Part shown: positions 13,936 to 25,797 of the stretch, piece by piece
Numbering within the stretch: position 1 is the stretch's first letter
Layout: every line of letters starts with the position of its first letter
NCBI GenBank assembly: GCA_012862495.1
Contig: BLSG01000410.1
Location: 135,558 to 199,557, forward strand
Source of the DNA: Thraustochytrium aureum
Lineage: Eukaryota
Length of the DNA stretch: 64,000 bases
Direction of reading: 5' to 3'
Translations under genes and position numbers: made by a program
Notes under the pieces: generated by a model
Told to the model about the DNA's origin: nothing
Databases searched by the model: none
The model's input: the letters and a program-made list of their open reading frames with translations, nothing else

Positions 13936-16900
13936 ATGTGGCGTCGCGCAGTGCGTCGCGTTGCTGGCGGCCGTGCATGTTCTCTGTCGCCCAAGGCTCG
14001 GCGCGGGCTGGCGGACGGCACCGTCGCTCCGCGGGTGGTGACGATCGGCGACGTGACGCTGGAGCGGCAGCCGCCGCGCAAGGTTGAACTGGTGCCACGA
14101 GGGTACGATCGGACGTATGGCGCTGCGGCTTCGCAGGAGGTGCTGGCGCACCTGAGGTGGATGCTGCAGAAGGACAAGCTGGGGCAGGATANGTTTTTGC
14201 TGGGGTCGCCCGGGCGCAGCCGGCGGCACTTGGCCCTGCGGTATGCAGAGCTCACCCAACGCGAGGTCGAGTACATTGCGATTAGCCGGGATACGACCGA
14301 GTCGGACCTCAAGCAGAGGCGCGAGATCATCGGCGGGACTGCCGTCTTTGCAGACCAAGCCCCGGTGCGCGCTGCGCTCCACGGGCGGCTGCTGATTGTG
14401 GACGGGATCGAGAAGGCGGAGCGCAACGTCCTGCCCACGCTCAACAACTTGCTGGAGAACCGCGAGATGCAGCTGGACGATGGCCGGTTCCTGATGGCCC
14501 CGGCGCGCTACGACGCGCTCGCCTCAGCAGGCGGCGCCCCAGAGCATCTGGTGCGCGCGCACCCAGAATTTCGCGTAGTTGCGCTGGGGCTCCCGGTGCC
14601 GCCGTTCAAGGGCAAGCCACTTGACCCGCCGCTCCGCTCGCGCTTCCAGGCGAGGGTGGTCGATCCGCTCGGCCCCAGCGAGCTGTGGGCCGAGATGGTG
14701 TACGCCGTCTCCACGATCGACGCAGGCGTCTCGGGGCGGCCCGACGACCTGCCGCGCCTAGTGGCGCTGAGCGGGGCGGCGGCCGCTTTGCGCGACATGG
14801 AAGAGGTCTGGGCGCGCCCAGGCGGAGCGGAGCAGGCCGGGACGCCGGGCATGCCACACTTTCCGGAGGACAGCTTGCCGGCTCTTGCGGCGCTCGCCCA
14901 TGCGCTTCCAGAGGAGCGAGTTGGGACTCTCCTGAACCGCGCGTTCCCGTTTTTCGACGAGATGCCCCTCCCGCGCGAGCTGGAGCCGTTTCGGAAAACG
15001 TGCCGCCTGTTGCTCGAGCAGCGGGCGGACGAACTTGTCGGCGGCGCGCCCGCCAGCGCGTTTCGTGCCGAGTCTGTCTACAAGCTGAAGAGCGTGACCG
15101 CAGGGGAGCGAGCTGACGGCCCGGGGGAGTTTGCTTTCGTCGCAATGCGCGGCCCCTCTAAGAACGAGGTTGTCACGCTGCGGGGCGAGGTTGGGCCGCT
15201 GCTCGGCCACGGCGAGGTGGGCCAGTTGCCGCAACGGAGCGGCCGGCACTTTCACGCGATCGACCNNNNNNNNNNNNNNNNNNNNNNNNNNNNNNNNNNN
15301 NNNNNNNNNNNNNNNNNNNNNNNNNNNNNNNNNNNNNNNNNNNNNNNNNNNNNNNNNNNNNNNNNNNNNNNNNNNNNNNNNNNNNNNNNNNNNNNNNNNN
15401 NNNNNNNNNNNNNNNNNNNNNNNNNNNNNNNNNNNNNNNNNNNNNNNNNNNNNNNNNNNNNNNNNNNNAGGACCACTGCGCCGGGCGGGACCTCCTCCTC
15501 GTCGGGGACGCCGGGTCGGGCAAGTCGCGGCTTGCAGAGCAGCTAGCAGCGAGGCTTGGGTACGAGACGCAGCTATTCAGTTTGTACAAAGACATGAGCG
15601 CGAGGGACCTGCTGCAGCGGCGCAGCACGGATGCCGAGGGCAACACGGGGTGGGACGATAGCCCCTTGATCAGCGCCGCTGTGAATGGCGACTTGCTGAT
15701 CATGGACGGGATCGACCGCGTCGACGCAGAGTCGCTGACTGTGATCCAGCGCCTACTGCAGGACCGGGAGGCCGACCTCTTTGACGGGCGCCGGCTTGGG
15801 CCGCATGGCGACCTGCAGGTCCATCCGCGCTTCCGCGTGCTTGCGCTTGCGACGGCGAGCCGGGGGAAAGCGGGGATGGCCTGGCTCACGTCCGAGCTCC
15901 TGAGCATGTTTTCGGTGCACCACTTGGAGCCACTGCAGCCCGCGGAGCAGGAGCTGATTGTGCGCGTGTGCCTCCCCGGCGTGCCCGGCGAGTTCCTTGA
16001 CACGCTCCGCGCGTTCTCAAACGCGCTAGCTGCGTCGACCTCGCCAGGATCGACGGGCCCCGGGACGGGCAACGCCCGCGGCAAGGCGGGCGTTGGGCGC
16101 AAATCAGGGCAAAGCGGCACCGTGGAGGCCACGCGGGCCGCCTCGCTCGGGCTCGCCCCGCTCTCGACGCGGCAAGTGATGCGGCTGTGTAGGTTTGCTG
16201 ATGCTTTCCCGGAGCGCGCCGCGCCCGAGATGCGCGAACGACTGAAAAACGTTTTGCTGGGGCACTTTCTTCCGACCTCGCAGAAGGTCGCGTTGGAGCA
16301 GCTGATGACCGAGATGGGCGTCAGCGGCGGCCAGCAGCAGCAGCAGCAGCAGCAGCAGCCAGGTGACTCTCGCCCCGAGGACCTTGAGATCTCCACTGAG
16401 GGCGGCGTTTTACGAATCGGCGACGTCGCTGCCAACGTCCGCGTCGCGGCGCGCCCGGAACTGGTTCCTGCGCCCGTCTTTTTCGACATCCCCAAGCACA
16501 AGGAGGTGCTCCGCGACCTGCTAGAGGACGTCGTGTCGAATGAAAAGTACATCCTGCTGATCGGCAACCAAGGCGTTGGCAAGAACAAGCTCGCCGACAG
16601 GCTGCTGCAGCTCCTGCAGTTTGAGCGCGAGTACATCCAGCTCCATCGCGACTCGACGGTGGGCAGCCTCACGCTCTCGCCGAGCCTGCGTCAGGGTATT
16701 GTCGTGTGGGAGGACTCGCCCTTGGTGCGGGCCGCGATCCATGGGCGCACTCTCATGGTTGACGAGGTCGACAAGGCGCCGCTCGAGGTGGTGAGCGTGC
16801 TGAAGAGCCTGATCGAAGACGAGGAGATGCTGCTCGCGGACGGACGGCGCCTTGTGAGCCGAGCCCGGTTCGACGCTGCCCGCGCGTCCGGTTCGCGGCA

Positions 16901-17435
16901 CGAGGAGTTTGTGCCGATCCACGACGAGTTTCGCATCTTGGCGCTGGCGAACCGCCCCGGCTGGCCCTTTCAGGGCAACTCGTTTTTTGCCGAGATTGGC
17001 GACATTTTCAGCTCGCACGTGATTGGCAACCCAGACGCGGCCTCCGAGCTGGAGCTGTTGCGGGCCTACGCGCCTTCCGTGGAGGTGCCCCTGCTTCGCA
17101 AGCTGGTCCGGTCGTTCGCGGACCTCCGCGCCCTGGTGGAGGATGGCGTGTTGGTCTACCCATACAGCGCGCGCGAGTGCGTCGCGGTGGCCAAGCACCT
17201 GGAGCAGTTCCCCGACGACGGGCTTGTCGGCACGTTGGAAAACGTTTTGGGTTTTGATAGCTACGATCCGCAGCTGCTGGAGGTCATCGTTGGCGTGTTC
17301 CAGCGGCACGGGGTGCCGTTGACCGTGCGGCGAGGGGCGGACCGCGGCGGGCGCCGCGCGTTAACGATTGCTGTCGCGGACGCCAAGGAGCTCCCTCCAG
17401 CAGTTGCGACGGAGGAGTGGACGCGCCAGGGGTAG
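13936..17435 (+). CDS. VWA8: VWA8-like mitochondrial AAA+ (AAA_5/MoxR-type) ATPase with three AAA modules and no vWA domain
   Basis: Arg-rich presequence MWRRAVRRVAGG, then LRWMLQKDKLGQDxFLLGSPG, ISRDTTESDLKQRREI, DGIEKAERNVLPTLNNLLENREMQLDDGRFL, LIGNQGVGKNKLADRLLQLL and ANRPGWPFQGNSFF, all characteristic of VWA8. Spans gap 15266-15468. Confidence 0.9.
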
Positions 17436-19331: not shown

Positions 19332-20444
19332 CGCGCCTCGTCGCCTTCGATCTGGACCAAGTATGCACGTGATCGAGTGCTCGACCCGCAGATTCCAATG
19401 CGCCACTCGACGGATGGTGCGCGTCCGCCATGTCCGATCAGCTGCACCTCCGCGTTGGCTCCGACGAACGAACGCGCCGCCCTTGGCCCATCCTCAGGCG
19501 AGCGATCGAGCGCGAATCGCCGATGATCGACCGCGGCAGGCATGCCAGGACCGGCGCGGTTTCANNNNNNNNNNNNNNNNNNNNNNNNNNNNNNNNNNNN
19601 NNNNNNNNNNNNNNNNNNNNNNNNNNNNNNNNNNNNNNNNNNNNNNNNNNNNNNNNNNNNNNNNNNNNNNNNNNNNNNNNNNNNNNNNNNNNNNNNNNNN
19701 NNNNNNNNNNNNNNNNNNNNNNNNNNNNNNNNNNNNNNNNNNNNNNNNNNNNNNNNNNNNNNNNNNNNNNNNNNNNNNNNNNNNNNNNNNNNNNNNNNNN
19801 NNNNNNNNNNNNNNNNNNNNNNNNNNNNNNNNNNNNNNNNNNNNNNNNNNNNNNNNNNNNNNNNNNNNNNNNNNNNNNNCGAGCGGCCGCAGATGCGCCT
19901 TTCGCGCTCGCACCGTGCTGCTCGCGCTCGAGCAGGAACTGGGCAAGCAAGCGCCTGGCCGATGTGGAGTCCACTTGATCGAACGAGCCGTGATCATCGA
20001 TCGTCGTCGATCTGCCAGGAGGACAAGCGCGGAGTGCGCCATGCCATGTGGACTTGCTGCTCCCCGAGCCTCAGCTGTCAGTCAGGAGAGCCAGCGCGTG
20101 AACGCGGCGGCCGCCCAGTCAGTCAGTCACTAGGGTGTTGTGAGTTGTGACTGAGGACTCGGAGGGCCGGAACGCGCGATTTCGCCACTGCCCGTGGGAG
20201 AGCTACCAGGCTGTCTTCACGGCTGCCGATGAGATGCCACACAAATCGCAGCGGCGTTCAGTGCAAGGCTGGGCAGACGCGCAACGAGCGGCAAGTCGAA
20301 CACGATCGCAGCGGCGATCTGAGCAGGGCTGTGGCAGACACGAAACGAACGGCAAGACACGAACGCGAGCTCGCGAGCGCAGAAGCGCAGAAGCGCAGAG
20401 GGCGGGCGTTGGCTAGGGCAGCGCACGAGGCTCACGGTGCAAGG

Positions 20445-23400
20445 ATGGAGTATTTTGCCGAGTCCGCCGAGGACGTGGTGGCCGCCATGGGGCGAGGCGT
20501 GACGAGAATCTTGTGCGTTTGGTTCGTGTGTCTGTGTTTGCTGCTGCGCGATGGCTGGTCGCGGACAAACTGATTGCACGCAGGACAGCTGAGAACTGAC
20601 GCATCGAAAACACCAACGGAAATGGCCACAGCGCTTTTGGCATCTGCATCGACGATACTGAAGCCATCGCGCTGGCCAACGCTCTCGAGACCAACACGAC
20701 GCTGACGCATCTAAGGTGTGTTGTCACGGTTGCAGATCTTTCGCTGCATCCAGGCAGGCTGCCGACGCGCTGGTGCTAACAAAGAGGGCATCGACAAAAA
20801 CATCCGCGTGCGGTCGAGCAACAGGTTTGAAAGGAACAATATCGGCAACGCAGGGGCTGGCGCGCTGGCCCAGTCGCTCCAGACCAACTCGACGCTGACT
20901 CATCTCAAGTAAGTCGTCCATGCTTATCGGGCCAGGTCTGAAATGGCTCGCCTTGGCTGACCAAGAGAGGGGCACGACCGAAATCAAACCGACAGGATCG
21001 GCAAGAACCAGGTCAACGACGAGGGGGCTCGAGCGCTGGCCACGGCCCTTGGGAACAACGCGGCGCTGAAAGTACTCGAGTACGTTTTGGCTGCAGACGT
21101 ATCTGTAGAGCTCTAGCTAAAGCTTGCTGGACAGCAGAGTGCGCCGTTTGCTCGCTCGCAGGAAGGAAGCCTTCGCCTCTCGCGTGCTATGTCGTCCACC
21201 AGAGCTAACGAGCTGGTTCTGCGCCAAAGCCTTGAAGGCAACGAGATCAGCAGCGAAGGGGCCACCAACCTGGCCCTGGCGCTCGAGACCAACTCGACGC
21301 TCTCCACGCTAGAGTAAGTCCTTGCGCATGCTGTGGCAGCTTCCAAGCAGGCTGGACCAATTAGTGGGTGCGCGTTCGAACGCTCTGACGTGTTGAGCTC
21401 AATGTCGAAACATCAGCCTTCACCACAACAAGATCTGCGACGGAGGGGCTTGCGCCTTGGCTCGAGCTCTCCGTAGGAACGCGACGCTCACTGCGCTGTT
21501 GTAAGTTTTGGCGGATTTGTGCGCCCGGCGTGTCAATGTTCTGCATGCTGCATCCACATGCTGGGGTGCTGACGGAATCAAAACGAGAAACAGCCTTGAC
21601 TGCAACCCCATCGGCTCTGACGGTATCGAGGCTCTGACCAAAGCGCTGGAGAGCAATTCGACCCTGACGAGGCTAGAGTAAGTAGTTGCGGCGCGCCAAG
21701 GTTCGCTACCGAAAAGTGTAGCTCATCCCCCAATGCTTGGGCGCACCCTTGCTGACGAGCGATATCATGAATCACTGCAACAGTGTTGGTTGCATGCACA
21801 GGAACACATCGACATGGCCGCTCCAGGACACGGCGCATGAACAAGAGCGCATGGAGCAAGAGCGCATGGAGCAAGAGCGCATGGAGCACGAGCGCATGGC
21901 GCAAGAGCGCATGGCGCAAGANNNNNNNNNNNNNNNNNNNNNNNNNNNNNNNNNNNNNNNNNNNNNNNNNNNNNNNNNNNNNNNNNNNNNNNNNNNNNNN
22001 NNNNNNNNNNNNNNNNNNNNNNNNNNNNNNNNNNNNNNNNNNNNNNNNNNNNNNNNNNNNNNNNNNNNNNNNNNNNNNNNNNNNNNNNNNNNNNNNNNNN
22101 NNNNNNNNNNNNNNNNNNNNNNNNNNNNNNNNNNNNNNNNNNNNNNNNNNNNNNNNNNNNNNNNNNNNNNNNNNNNNNNNNNNNNNNNNNNNNNNNNNNN
22201 NNNNNNNNNNNNNNNNNNNNNNNNNNNNNNNNNNNNNNNNNNNNNNNNNNNNNNNNNNNNNNNNNNNNNNNNNNNNNNNNNNNNNNNNNNNNNNNNNNNN
22301 NNNNNNNNNNNNNNNNNNNNNNNNNNNNNNNNNNNNNNNNNNNNNNNNNNNNNNNNNNNNNNNNNNNNNNNNNNNNNNNNNNNNNNNNNNNNNNNNNNNN
22401 NNNNNNNNNNNNNTGCCCAGGAGGCGCTGCATCATATCGCTTCATGGAAATCCCGCCATGACCTCTCGCGACTTCGGAACGCGACAGAAGCCGCCATCGA
22501 AGGGCAGGACGAGCCTCTGCCATCGCTCAAGTCGCTCCTCAAAGGTCAAGACAAGTTGGATGGGCTGGAAGGGTGGTTGACTGGAGTTCGCGAAACGATA
22601 CGACAGGAGATTGCTGCGCTCGAGAACCGAAACACTCAAGCCGATGCGCCTCTCTGCCTTGTGCGAGCCGCCCTTGCAACGATATCAGTGTACTACGGGT
22701 CAGTGTTGCCGGGCCAGGTCCAAGTGTTGAGGGACCGGCGCGAAGCAGCCAAGATAAAACTGAACGACGTTGCAGCTGGCGAGAACGAGCCCAGCTTTTC
22801 GCGGATCGAGAGCTGCGTCGCAGAGCTCCGCAGCGCGAGCCTCGGGCTCCGCGAAACCCGACACCGGCTTCAAATCCAGCTGCAAGATTTGGAGGAGGAT
22901 TTGGCCTACATAACTAGCCTGGACGAGCGCGCCAATGCCGTGGCAGAGATCGCAGATATCCAGCGCCAGCTGGACGAGCTGGACGCGGCAAGCACGCGGA
23001 GGCGGGTGGAGCACGAGCTTCTGAGAGAGCGGGCGCGCATCCTGAACATTGCGATGAAGCACTTTCCAGAGAAGCGCTTTGACGAGGGCTTTATACTCAG
23101 GCTGCGCGTCAATGCGGGACTCCCCGTCGCAGAGCTGTGTCGCAGCGGGGTCTGGTTGGACGGCGCAAGACAGAGCGATTTTATCGTCCAGGAAACCTTG
23201 GCGGCCGCAGGGTCCAAGACTGTGGTTCGGGCCACTGATTCGCGAGGGGCGGTGGTCGTGCTCAAGCGCTTCTTCCTCGGCGACGAGGACCGCCAGCGCC
23301 ACTTTTACCGGCAGTGCGGCGTGCTGCAAGCACTGCGCAATTCATTCGTGGTGTGTGTGCAGGGCGTCTTCGTGGAGGGTCACTTTGGGTTTCTTGTGAC

Positions 23401-24352
23401 GCCGTTTTACGATCGCGGCAGCCTGGACAAATGGCTGCTCACCGACGTTGGTCAGGCCCGCAGCGTCGAGGTCTGCAAGAGCATCGCTTGCGACGTGCTC
23501 GACGGCCTCGTGGCCATGCACGCTGCTGGGTGCGTCCATATGGACGTCAAGCCGGGAAACGTGCTGCTGACCCAGTCTGGTCGGGCCGTGATCGGCGACT
23601 TTGACGGCGTGCGGCAAGTCGACGCGACGGCAACGCGAGCTCTGCACGTCACTTTGAAATACCTCGCACCTGAGGTCGCTTCTGGCGCAGCAACGGCGGC
23701 GAGGAGCAGCGCTGACATGTATGCTTTCGGCAAGGTGCTCGCCGAGCTCTTCGGCGGGATCCACGACGTGGCTGCGTTGGTGGACGAGCTGTGCTCGGAA
23801 GACCCGACGGCCAGGCCAAGTGCGGCCCAAGTGCGCCGTCGGGCGTTCTTCGACCGTGCGGCGGTGGAAGTGCGAGACTGCATGGCGTGCATGGACAAGG
23901 TGGACCGCGCGCGCGCAGCATGCTGCCCGCAGGGCCACGCGGTGTGCCAGGAGTCGTGCCTGGAAGGCTTTCTCGGTGCGCTTCAGGACGAGCGACTCGC
24001 CCCGGACGGGTCGGTGTCGTGCAGAATATGCGACGAGCTGATCCCGAGCAGCGAACTGGCGCGCCTAGCCCCTCCTGCGGTGTGGGCCGCTGTGCAAGCG
24101 CGGCTTCAGGACCAGCATCGCGCCGACCTTGAGCGCGAGTTCAAGGCCCTCCTCGAGGCCGAGCTGGCAAAGGGAGAGATGGAGCTGGGCCTGCGGCGGC
24201 ATTGGAACCACATTACGGGAAGAATCCTTTCGCTGAGCTGCCCGCGGTGCGGCGAGGTTTTCGCGGACTTTGACAGGTGTTTCGCGATCTCGTGCGGACG
24301 GAACGGGTGCGGTTGCCACTTTTGCGCCTGGTGTCTGCAGGACTGCGGCGAC
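20445..24352 (+). CDS. Multi-exon protein: RI-type LRRs, coiled coil, protein kinase, RING and RBR-RING2-like domains; 3' end in gap
   Basis: Exons 20445-20512, 20632-20715, 20825-20908, 20996-21079, 21230-21313, 21417-21500, 21594-21677, then 21784 onward, all with GT..AG phase-2 introns. LRR consensus xLxxNxIxxxGAxxLAxALxxNxTLxxL, then an EQERM repeat, kinase motifs (VVLKRF, HMDVKPGNVLL, GDFD, YLAPE), and Cys-rich CMAC..CPQGHAVC..C..CRIC and CPRC..DRCFAISC..C..FCAWC. Continuity across gap 21922-22413 is inferred. Confidence 0.8.
21838..21921 (+). repeat. 15-nt coding tandem repeat (E/A-Q-E-R-M) running into an assembly gap
   Basis: At least 5 gcaagagcgcatgga-like units before the N-run. 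Confidence 0.9.
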
Positions 24353-25797
24353 NNNNNNNNNNNNNNNNNNNNNNNNNNNNNNNNNNNNNNNNNNNNNNNN
24401 NNNNNNNNNNNNNNNNNNNNNNNNNNNNNNNNNNNNNNNNNNNNNNNNNNNNNNNNNNNNNNNNNNNNNNNNNNNNNNNNNNNNNNNNNNNNNNNNNNNN
24501 NNNNNNNNNNNNNNNNNNNNNNNNNNNNNNNNNNNNNNNNNNNNNNNNNNNNNNNNNNNNNNNNNNNNNNNNNNNNNNNNNNNNNNNNNNNNNNNNNNNN
24601 NNNNNNNNNNNNNNNNNNNNNNNNNNNNNNNNNNNNNNNNNNNNNNNNNNNNNNNNNNNNNNNNNNNNNNNNNNNNNNNNNNNNNNNNNNNNNNNNNNNN
24701 NNNNNNNNNNNNNNNNNNNNNNNNNNNNNNNNNNNNNNNNNNNNNNNNNNNNNNNNNNNNNNNNNNNNNNNNNNNNNNNNNNNNNNNNNNNNNNNNNNNN
24801 NNNNNNNNNNNNNNNNNNNNNNNNNNNNNNNNNNNNNNNNNNNNNNNNNNNNNNNNNNNNNNNNNNNNNNNNNNNNNNNNNNNNNNNNNNNNNNNNNNNN
24901 NNNNNNNNNNNNNNNNNNNNNNNNNNNNNNNNNNNNNNNNNNNNNNNNNNNNNNNNNNNNNNNNNNNNNNNNNNNNNNNNNNNNNNNNNNNNNNNNNNNN
25001 NNNNNNNNNNNNNNNNNNNNNNNNNNNNNNNNNNNNNNNNNNNNNNNNNNNNNNNNNNCGCCGTTCATCTCGCCAGCGCGCGCGACCACACCGGTAAGCG
25101 CATCGAAGGCACATGGTAGAGTAGGCCTGCATGCCGGTGGTCGGTTTTTGTATCTCCCAGCGGACCTCTCATCACCCTCATGCATCATCTCATCACACTC
25201 GTCCACCCAGTGGCACGTCAGAACAGAACAGATTCGCCGTCATCGCCAAGAGATTCATTGATTTCAATTGTTCATGAAATCAAGATTCATTGCGTTTTCC
25301 AAGAATTCGTTCATCGTTCGTCTCTGCTGAAACGCCATTTTCCCGCCGTCACTCGCGCTTGTCGAATCCGCGACCAACATGGTTCCCCACGCGCGACTCA
25401 AGAGCGGAACAGAATCTGAAGATTCATCTTCTTCACCCCACAACACCGCGTCGCCTGGTCCCCCTCTCGGGCCCTCCCTGCCGAGTTACCCCGAGAGGCG
25501 CGGCACAAAGCCGATGCGCGCTGTCCCCTCCCGTGAAAACCTCCCACACACAGTAACCCCGGCTCACACAGCGGGTTCCCCTGAACGCCCTCCTAGCTCC
25601 CCTTCCTCCTCAACCACCCGCACCCTGTCGTTCCGCGCTCCCACCACCTTCCACTTCACTTTTGTGCCCTCTTACCGTTGAAGTTCAACTCGCGCGCCGC
25701 CCCCCAAATCCATTCATTCGCTCTCTCCCTTGACCGACCCCAAATTGATTTGGTCCACGTTGATTCCTTCGTTTTTCCTCCTTTTTTTCCTCGTTGG

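Follow-up and report, generated by a model that had tools for sequence, protein, structure and literature searches.

An array of six exons, each exactly 84 nucleotides (nt) long and each proposed to encode one leucine-rich repeat (LRR), lies in a 64,000-nt stretch of the Thraustochytrium aureum genome (hereafter the window) and raises two questions: which gene does the array belong to, and does it form a recognition module that can be diversified? The gene is composed of an N-cap, six RI-type LRRs, an EQERM repeat and coiled coil, a Ser/Thr kinase, a RING1, a long helix, and an Rcat-like module (Table 1). The kinase and ligase domains joined to the LRRs were overlooked in the original prediction, in which the feature ended at 21784; the gene goes on beyond that point into a kinase and RING1–Rcat frame.

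Table 1. Features of the array gene, in window coordinates
Feature	Position	Strand	Evidence or remark
Opening coding exon with probable ATG start (22 codons + 2 bases), giving a helical LRR N-cap	20445..20512	+	
84-nt exon, LRR1, degenerate, without Asn	20632..20715	+	
84-nt exon, LRR2	20825..20908	+	LRR_6 E 0.098, transcript joints
84-nt exon, LRR3	20996..21079	+	LRR_6 E 0.016; second version in X2 differs at 8/84 bases
84-nt exon, LRR4	21230..21313	+	second X2 version differs at 7/81 aligned bases
84-nt exon, LRR5	21417..21500	+	transcript joints
84-nt exon, LRR6	21594..21677	+	LRR_6 E 0.038, transcript joints
Start of long exon; 15-nt tandem repeat, 6 copies at 21833-21921, EQERM-like units	21784..21921	+	joint 21677>21784
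Assembly gap, 492 N, inside coding sequence	21922..22413	+	bridged by X1 contig
Helical/coiled-coil region common to thraustochytrid relatives	22415..23210	+	blastp E 6e-23 to 3e-7
Ser/Thr protein kinase domain, end approximate	23219..23850	+	Pkinase E 2.4e-27
RBR-type RING1, then predicted 52-residue helix to about 24230	23879..24040	+	model, Foldseek, profiles
Rcat(RING2)-like zinc module, cut by gap at 24353	24239..24352	+	Parkin alignment, profiles
Likely transcript 3′ end; possible stop 25117-25119, frame not established	25059..25300	+	X1 and X2 contig cover

Structure and splicing of the exon array

Each of the 84-nt exons is preceded by AG and followed by GT and is read as one base, 27 codons, and two bases, so that all the introns flanking them are in phase 2. 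The seven introns in the LRR part of the gene measure 119, 109, 87, 150, 103, 93, and 106 nt, and the predicted CTRAC branch site is found in every one of them, 25–49 nt upstream of the AG. Downstream of this site, the acceptor regions (introns within 20513-21783) are A/purine-rich and have no pyrimidine tract. The spliced frame that opens with the ATG at 20445 runs through 236 codons without a stop before it reaches the gap at 21922, and the N-termini of two related proteins, P0158 and P0004, resemble by eye the product of the first coding exon.

Transcript data were contigs from three public runs of one study (X1, X2, and X3), none of which is recorded as RNA; X1 and X2 were taken as RNA from their spliced joints and empty introns. 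The GT..AG joints of all seven introns are present in the contigs, six of them (including the first-exon joint 20512>20632) in both X1 and X2 and one, 20908>20996, in X2 only, with none in X3, and all 11 wholly intronic bins have a depth of 0 in the three runs. Because contigs join every intron and the intronic bins are without cover, the exon structure is real and used; the boundaries, phase-2 flanks, and junctions originally predicted were confirmed at all coordinates. Splicing in transcripts also rules out chance or pseudo-exons. X3 yielded no contig at least 95% alike on the LRR exons, which is not taken as absence. Mid-exon joints and joints that go back were rejected as splicing, since they have no GT..AG ends and derive from paralogous repeats. 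Contigs extend 5′ of the ATG, from about 20190-20246, and in X2 the 5′ untranslated region (window 20376 and 20394-20437) carries an 8-base deletion and three substitutions.

The array is thus tandem, exact in length, frame-preserving, uniform in intron phase, and used in transcripts. A motif scan finds the 28-aa LxxLxLxxN motif with a helical convex side (RI-like, LRR_6), and each exon encodes one LRR, that of the first 84-nt exon being degenerate. Taken singly, the exons give sub-threshold LRR_6 matches in Pfam for three of the six, and the spliced N-terminus matches the LRR_6 proteins P0158 (E 7e-29) and P0004 (E 9e-21). Among themselves, the six exons are 50–69% identical in nucleotides and 33–52% in amino acids (44% on average in the repeats); these nucleotide identities and the unrelated introns rule out a recent tandem duplication of the six. 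The introns, described at first as unrelated, are essentially so, but three of the 21 pairs beat all 300 mononucleotide shuffles (z 4.0–4.9), a likeness that plausibly comes from shared branch-site and A-rich ends. The claim of intron-poor neighbours finds rough support in an intron-consensus pattern with 13 matches in 64 kb, eight of them in the array gene, a circular test as the pattern was built from the introns of this gene.

The gene beyond the array

The first assembly gap is bridged by an X1 contig of 2093 nt, which comprises LRR exons 3-6, 21784-21909, 564 letters across the gap, and 22414-23482; as the 564 letters between 21909 and 22414 keep the frame, LRR exons 3-6 are linked in frame to the kinase exon. 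The X1 and X2 contigs match the EQERM repeat only to 21909 and differ at two sites, and the number of EQERM units may differ from that in the assembly. Beyond the gap, the frame is open for 646 codons (22415-24352). Its first part matches P0003, P0158, P0004, P0253, and P0001 in blastp, and we infer a coiled coil there from its composition.

In the kinase, the β3 Lys (23264), the catalytic Asp, Lys, and Asn (HMDVKPGN, 23537), the Asp of DFG (23597), and the Glu of APE (23666) are all retained. DFG itself reads DFD, as it does in 42 of 49 kinase-bearing members of the family described below; Gln replaces the αC Glu, likewise in nine of the 49, and the Gly loop is degenerate and not standard. 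Second contigs, about 90% alike, are found on 23488-23626 (kinase) and 24224-24349 (Rcat), from which it follows that the effector part has at least one expressed paralog.

Contigs continue from the Rcat-like module into the gap at 24353. This gap (24353-25058) exceeds the roughly 75-residue tail of the relatives and may contain an intron or a further domain; in P0001, a TIR stands at the C-terminus. As for NACHT or NB-ARC domains, Pfam on 22415-24352 gives kinase families only, and none is present in full-length relatives, the check covering the gene apart from two gap stretches of about 190 and up to about 250 residues. Given that a STAND NTPase domain is absent from both the readable frame and the relatives, the gene is not an NLR.

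A RING1–helix–Rcat unit

A structural model of 23858-24352 (25-sequence alignment; pLDDT 91.7, pTM 0.64) consists of a RING and a second zinc module with one 52-residue helix between them. The best 10 structural matches of the RING1 part are all RBR ligases, with moderate Z scores of 5.9–7.0 (below 8), in a fold search that barely tested the second module. Foldseek places RNF216 (E 2.7e-4) and Parkin (E 4.9e-4) at the top, and profiles match Parkin RING1 at E 1.7e-7 and, in CUL9 and ARIH2, the third RBR domain. With Parkin RING2, the second module aligns without gaps (E 0.27, weak alone), having a Cys at the catalytic position of Parkin and an Ala in place of its His.

These residues recur across the family. 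Of the best 150 profile matches, which are biased towards the profile, 142 fit the motif; the non-ligand Cys is found in 137 of these 142, as in 25 of 25 aligned sequences, and two residues after it stands Ala in 137 of 142 and His in none. A Gly directly precedes the Cys in 120 of 137, and the window's own copy has Arg. The RING1 His lies 101 residues before the next zinc module here, and 95–133 in all 123 measurable relatives (of 147); a distance of this size, which includes the predicted 52-residue helix, leaves no room for an IBR/BRcat.

Compared with RBR E3 ligases such as Parkin, HOIP, HOIL-1, ARIH1/2, RNF216, and CUL9, the unit has the RING1 fold and, at the sequence level, a C-terminal Rcat with the cysteine spacing of Parkin RING2 and the catalytic-position Cys. 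It differs from them in having a single long helix and no IBR/BRcat, Cys-x-Ala rather than Cys-x-His, and a fused kinase. According to the cited part of one review, none of RING1, BRcat, and Rcat occurs without the other two (PMC3940038), and Parkin needs its His, a Cys-x-His motif that, in the sections of another paper, is not conserved in all RBRs (PMC3709503). The unit departs from the RBR type in the IBR and the His, yet likely works like an RBR. We infer ubiquitin ligase activity, and likewise any role in defence.

A rather unlikely alternative is that the second zinc module is non-catalytic and IBR/BRcat-like, which would make the C-terminus half an RBR, serving as a plain RING ligase or as a binder of ubiquitin or E2. 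IBR and Rcat have one common fold (PMC3940038, in the part cited), Pfam gives weak IBR matches, the IBR of insect Parkin likewise has a Cys at that position, and the Parkin-type His is absent; the statement in a 2014 review, within its cited part, that no isolated BRcat or Rcat domains are known also speaks for it. The extra Cys is, however, kept across diverse members, in most of them directly after a Gly; in both CUL9 and Parkin, the profile ranks the third RBR domain higher than the second; and no further zinc module follows in any of the 137 members checked. This alternative bears on the C-terminus alone and goes with either view of the LRRs discussed below.

Family and relatives

Among 1.84 billion representatives, a profile of the RING1–Rcat unit matches 829 clusters at E<=1e-30 and 4205 at E<=0.001, the weak tail of which probably includes ordinary RBRs. 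Of the 54 members of at least 760 aa among the best profile matches, 53 were scanned: 43 have a kinase, eight a UPF1-like helicase, and two no family. The partners within the 43 kinase members are ankyrin repeats (five), LRR_6 (four), and ubiquitin (three), and further partners are TIR in P0001, a sacsin domain in L016, and CCCH fingers in L008. The sources, among 20 looked up, include Hondaea, Euglena, Telonema, Polarella, Polykrikos, Paulinella, Balamuthia, and Rhodelphis. Kinase-less RING1–Rcat genes lie on six viral contigs (L030-L035), several of them giant-virus MAGs, as found by a search pattern that included Cys-x-Ala.

Several fusions extend beyond the common partners. L016:536-10576, L018, and L019 are single frames of about 3350 aa with a sacsin domain, kinase, and RING1–Rcat, and in P0198 histone-fold and HMG-box domains precede the kinase and the ligase unit. 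The UPF1-like helicases, of the SF1 type, are joined to RING1–Rcat in P0149, P0175, P0179, P0180, P0183, P0188, P0229, and P0234. Helicase–ligase fusions such as ZNFX1 act as nucleic-acid sensors, and these proteins are reminiscent of them. The best matches in the ESM Atlas are haptophyte clusters with scores below 0.9, taken as leads only.

The combination of LRRs, kinase, and RING1–Rcat also occurs in P0158, in P0004 and P0003 of Hondaea, in P0172 of Euglena, in P0243 of Balamuthia, and in L004. The last, from another lineage, encodes all three parts in a single frame without introns, and the exon array is therefore not needed for this architecture. The nearest named relatives are paralogs of Hondaea fermentalgiana called 'Protein kinase, putative' (34–36% identity for P0001-P0005), names that are automatic and come without a described function. 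These paralogs (P0001-P0005 and P0122), like P0158, have the core of coiled region, kinase, RING1, and Rcat, whereas their N-termini carry LRRs, ankyrin repeats, or both, and one has the C-terminal TIR. In P0001, P0003, and P0004, odd stretches just ahead of LxxN motifs look like the read-through of mis-modelled introns and stand at the same position, hinting, from proteins alone, that Hondaea may have the same exon layout.

In a FastTree phylogeny of 49 kinase-bearing members (399 columns, midpoint root), restricted to members of at least 600 aa passing the motif filter and so leaving out, for example, P0005, P0243, and P0247, the window protein groups with the Hondaea paralogs, P0158, P0253, and P0259 in one clade with support 1.0. 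The LRR-bearing Euglena protein falls outside this clade, and the tree suggests that LRR fusions may have arisen independently.

A search for longer relatives, a weak test, returned one unrelated match only. An LRR exon array near the ligase unit was found at none of 35 metagenome or viral loci, most of them short, with one strict motif. As for the literature, the exon layout is already known; within the limited coverage of our search, no paper was found on thraustochytrid LRR exons, on the IBR-less ligase family, or on an IBR-less RBR/kinase fusion, which surveys of RBR evolution may nevertheless mention.

Variation in the LRR module

Aligned at 80% on the LRR exons, the contigs less than 95% alike number 48 of 53, 22 of 30, and 29 of 29 in the three runs, these being fragments rather than genes, with the unlike parts alone listed. 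They accumulate over the helical framework; at the strand, similarity drops and their letters differ from one another. Many paralogous LRR repeats are expressed. Counted with one motif, LRRs number 6 here, 10 in P0158, 6 in P0004, 5 in P0172, and about 2 in P0003, and the repeats of P0004 are 72% alike on average, an indication of recent homogenisation, against 44% here.

X2 contains two 204-nt contigs, at depths of 14.3 and 17.3, that cover one and the same spliced segment running from the LRR2 end to mid-LRR4. Over LRR3-4, one of them differs from the window at 2 of 165 bases and the other at 15 of 165. The contigs flanking LRR3-4 are single, with exons identical to the window (that both versions share these flanks follows from 30-base overlaps), and the long (kinase) exon in X2 differs at 11 of 1905 bases (0.6%); 15/165 against 11/1905 gives a Fisher p of 6e-11, in a comparison chosen after the fact. 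We take the two versions for alleles, or for very closely related paralogs, in which a local tract has diverged. Of the variant's 15 differences, five are visible: two are silent and three are replacements on the helix side of LRR4, not on the concave strand. The tract begins 9 bases ahead of an exon end and breaks off within an exon; as its limits are not those of exons, conversion or balanced alleles explain it better than a clean swap of exons.

The variable residues had been placed at the splice junctions. Across 27 repeats from four proteins, strand positions are indeed variable (2.5–3.4 bits), but so are positions on the helix surface (2.9–3.1 bits). The junction lies inside the β-strand, which means that the concave face of one repeat is built from two exons and a split codon. 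The proposed diversifiable recognition module gains genuine but partial support, in that the gene is not single-copy-like, repeat number differs among relatives, and one run carries a divergent version of LRR3-4; the observations that follow speak against the mechanisms named for its diversification.

It is quite improbable that active exon shuffling or skipping generates a receptor repertoire here, in the manner of Ectocarpus ROCO and Tetrahymena LRR genes. Such a process would account for the strict phase-2 symmetry of exons in a region with few introns, for the many paralogous repeats that are expressed and keep one framework while their strand residues vary, and for repeat numbers as far apart as those of P0158 and P0003, with P0004 recently homogenised. 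Yet no GT..AG joint that skips an exon occurs among the listed joints (15/16 and 15/22, from contigs, which drop rare forms), and neither nhmmer nor a six-frame HMM finds a spare or inverted LRR exon besides the six (next E 0.28 and 0.81) in the 64-kb window, which has 20 N runs; the introns are too short to conceal one, and the ends of the variant tract do not respect exon borders.

Possible, though doubtful, is an ordinary signalling or housekeeping regulator, in which the LRRs would be a fixed interaction or autoinhibitory scaffold, the exon periodicity a relic, and the X2 variant a close paralog or the product of neutral conversion. The repeats are old, only 33–52% alike, over the aligned LRR exons only 2 bases separate X1 and one of the X2 versions from the window, kinase-exon differences are mostly silent (14 of 20 examined), L004 has the same architecture without introns, and the variable positions are not limited to the concave face. 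What such a regulator fits less well is a paralog-rich family whose N-terminal domains change within Hondaea, differences confined to LRR3-4 between identical flanks, and partner domains and viral copies that suit a role in conflict.

Possible mode of action

The explanation we favour, with somewhat better than even confidence, is that the six exons form the N-terminal LRR domain of an expressed coiled region–kinase–RING1–Rcat gene, whose product is likely a cytosolic recognition switch and cysteine-type ubiquitin ligase. The LRR arc would bind a partner or a foreign ligand, and this binding may relieve inhibition or favour pairing via the coiled region; the kinase would then phosphorylate itself or a target. 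RING1 would bind E2~Ub, and the long helix could swing the Rcat Cys to take ubiquitin and then pass it on, the role of the base falling, without the His, to another residue or to the substrate. The symmetric exons probably originated by tandem duplication of an exon–intron unit, and they would ease slow change in the germline, through repeats gained or lost and conversion among alleles or paralogs, instead of diversification by splicing or in somatic cells.

For a recognition switch, the LRR, ankyrin, ubiquitin, UPF1-like helicase, and TIR partners count as sensor-typical. RI-type LRRs serve many non-defence proteins too, however, which weakens the recognition role, and the best solved matches of P0158 include ciliary proteins as well as ribonuclease inhibitor. 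Also counted against a recognition ligase are the Ala for His, the Arg before the Cys, the Gln for the αC Glu, the non-standard Gly loop, and the helix-side replacements. A more far-reaching version, put forward tentatively and on balance unlikely, would see an undescribed two-domain cysteine E3 class, mounted on exchangeable sensors (LRR, ankyrin, RNA helicase, sacsin, CCCH, and TIR) and a kinase, as a cell-autonomous immune effector that giant viruses have captured, with gene conversion and balancing selection maintaining diversity in the modular 84-nt exon array of thraustochytrids.

Relation to known systems

In vertebrate NOD/NLRC genes, as described in the cited part of PMC6642158, one 28-aa LRR is encoded per exon, with the border in the β-strand. 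The T. aureum array likewise has one RI-type 28-aa LRR per 84-nt frame-preserving exon with a border inside the β-strand, a likeness at the level of the strand that does not imply a homologous codon. Unlike NOD/NLRC, the gene has no NACHT, its LRRs are N-terminal to the kinase and ligase unit, and no alternative splicing was seen.

Another unicellular eukaryote, Tetrahymena, has exact-length phase-2 LRR exon arrays, thought in the cited sections of PMC6564038 to be unique to it. Tandem exact-length LRR exons, phase-2 introns, and a split junction residue are common to both, whereas the exons are of 84 nt here and 90 there, the organisms belong to different supergroups, and no retroelement or exon scrambling is shown here. 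In form, the array gene is a counter-example to that uniqueness, as worded in those sections.

Ectocarpus has arrays of 72-nt LRR exons with and without shuffling, according to the cited parts of two papers (PMC3341825; PMC11378527). Its LRR-ROCO and LRR-kinase genes resemble the array gene in being from a stramenopile and in having one LRR per exon and a fused signalling domain, and they too are candidate receptors. The repeats there are of the plant-like 72-nt type; in contrast, the array gene has no ROC-COR and no inactivated or inverted intronic exons, the hallmark of shuffling, and as far as those accounts go, it is closer to the Ectocarpus type II LRR-kinases, with repetitive exons and no shuffling.

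On its own, the exon array is a further independent case of a known layout, extended to labyrinthulomycetes, and the attached ligase unit matters more. A natural, widespread RING1–Rcat without IBR and His would constitute a minimal system for testing the roles of both. The sensor-type fusions and giant-virus copies suggest a candidate defence pathway based on ubiquitin in protists, a group in which little is known of such pathways. Thraustochytrids can be grown in culture and harbour persistent large DNA viruses (PMC12606086, in the part cited), so the defence idea is testable.

Elsewhere in the window, at 14194-17432, lies a VWA8-like AAA gene, the nearest proteins of which are Aurantiochytrium-labelled (62%) and from Hondaea (60%).
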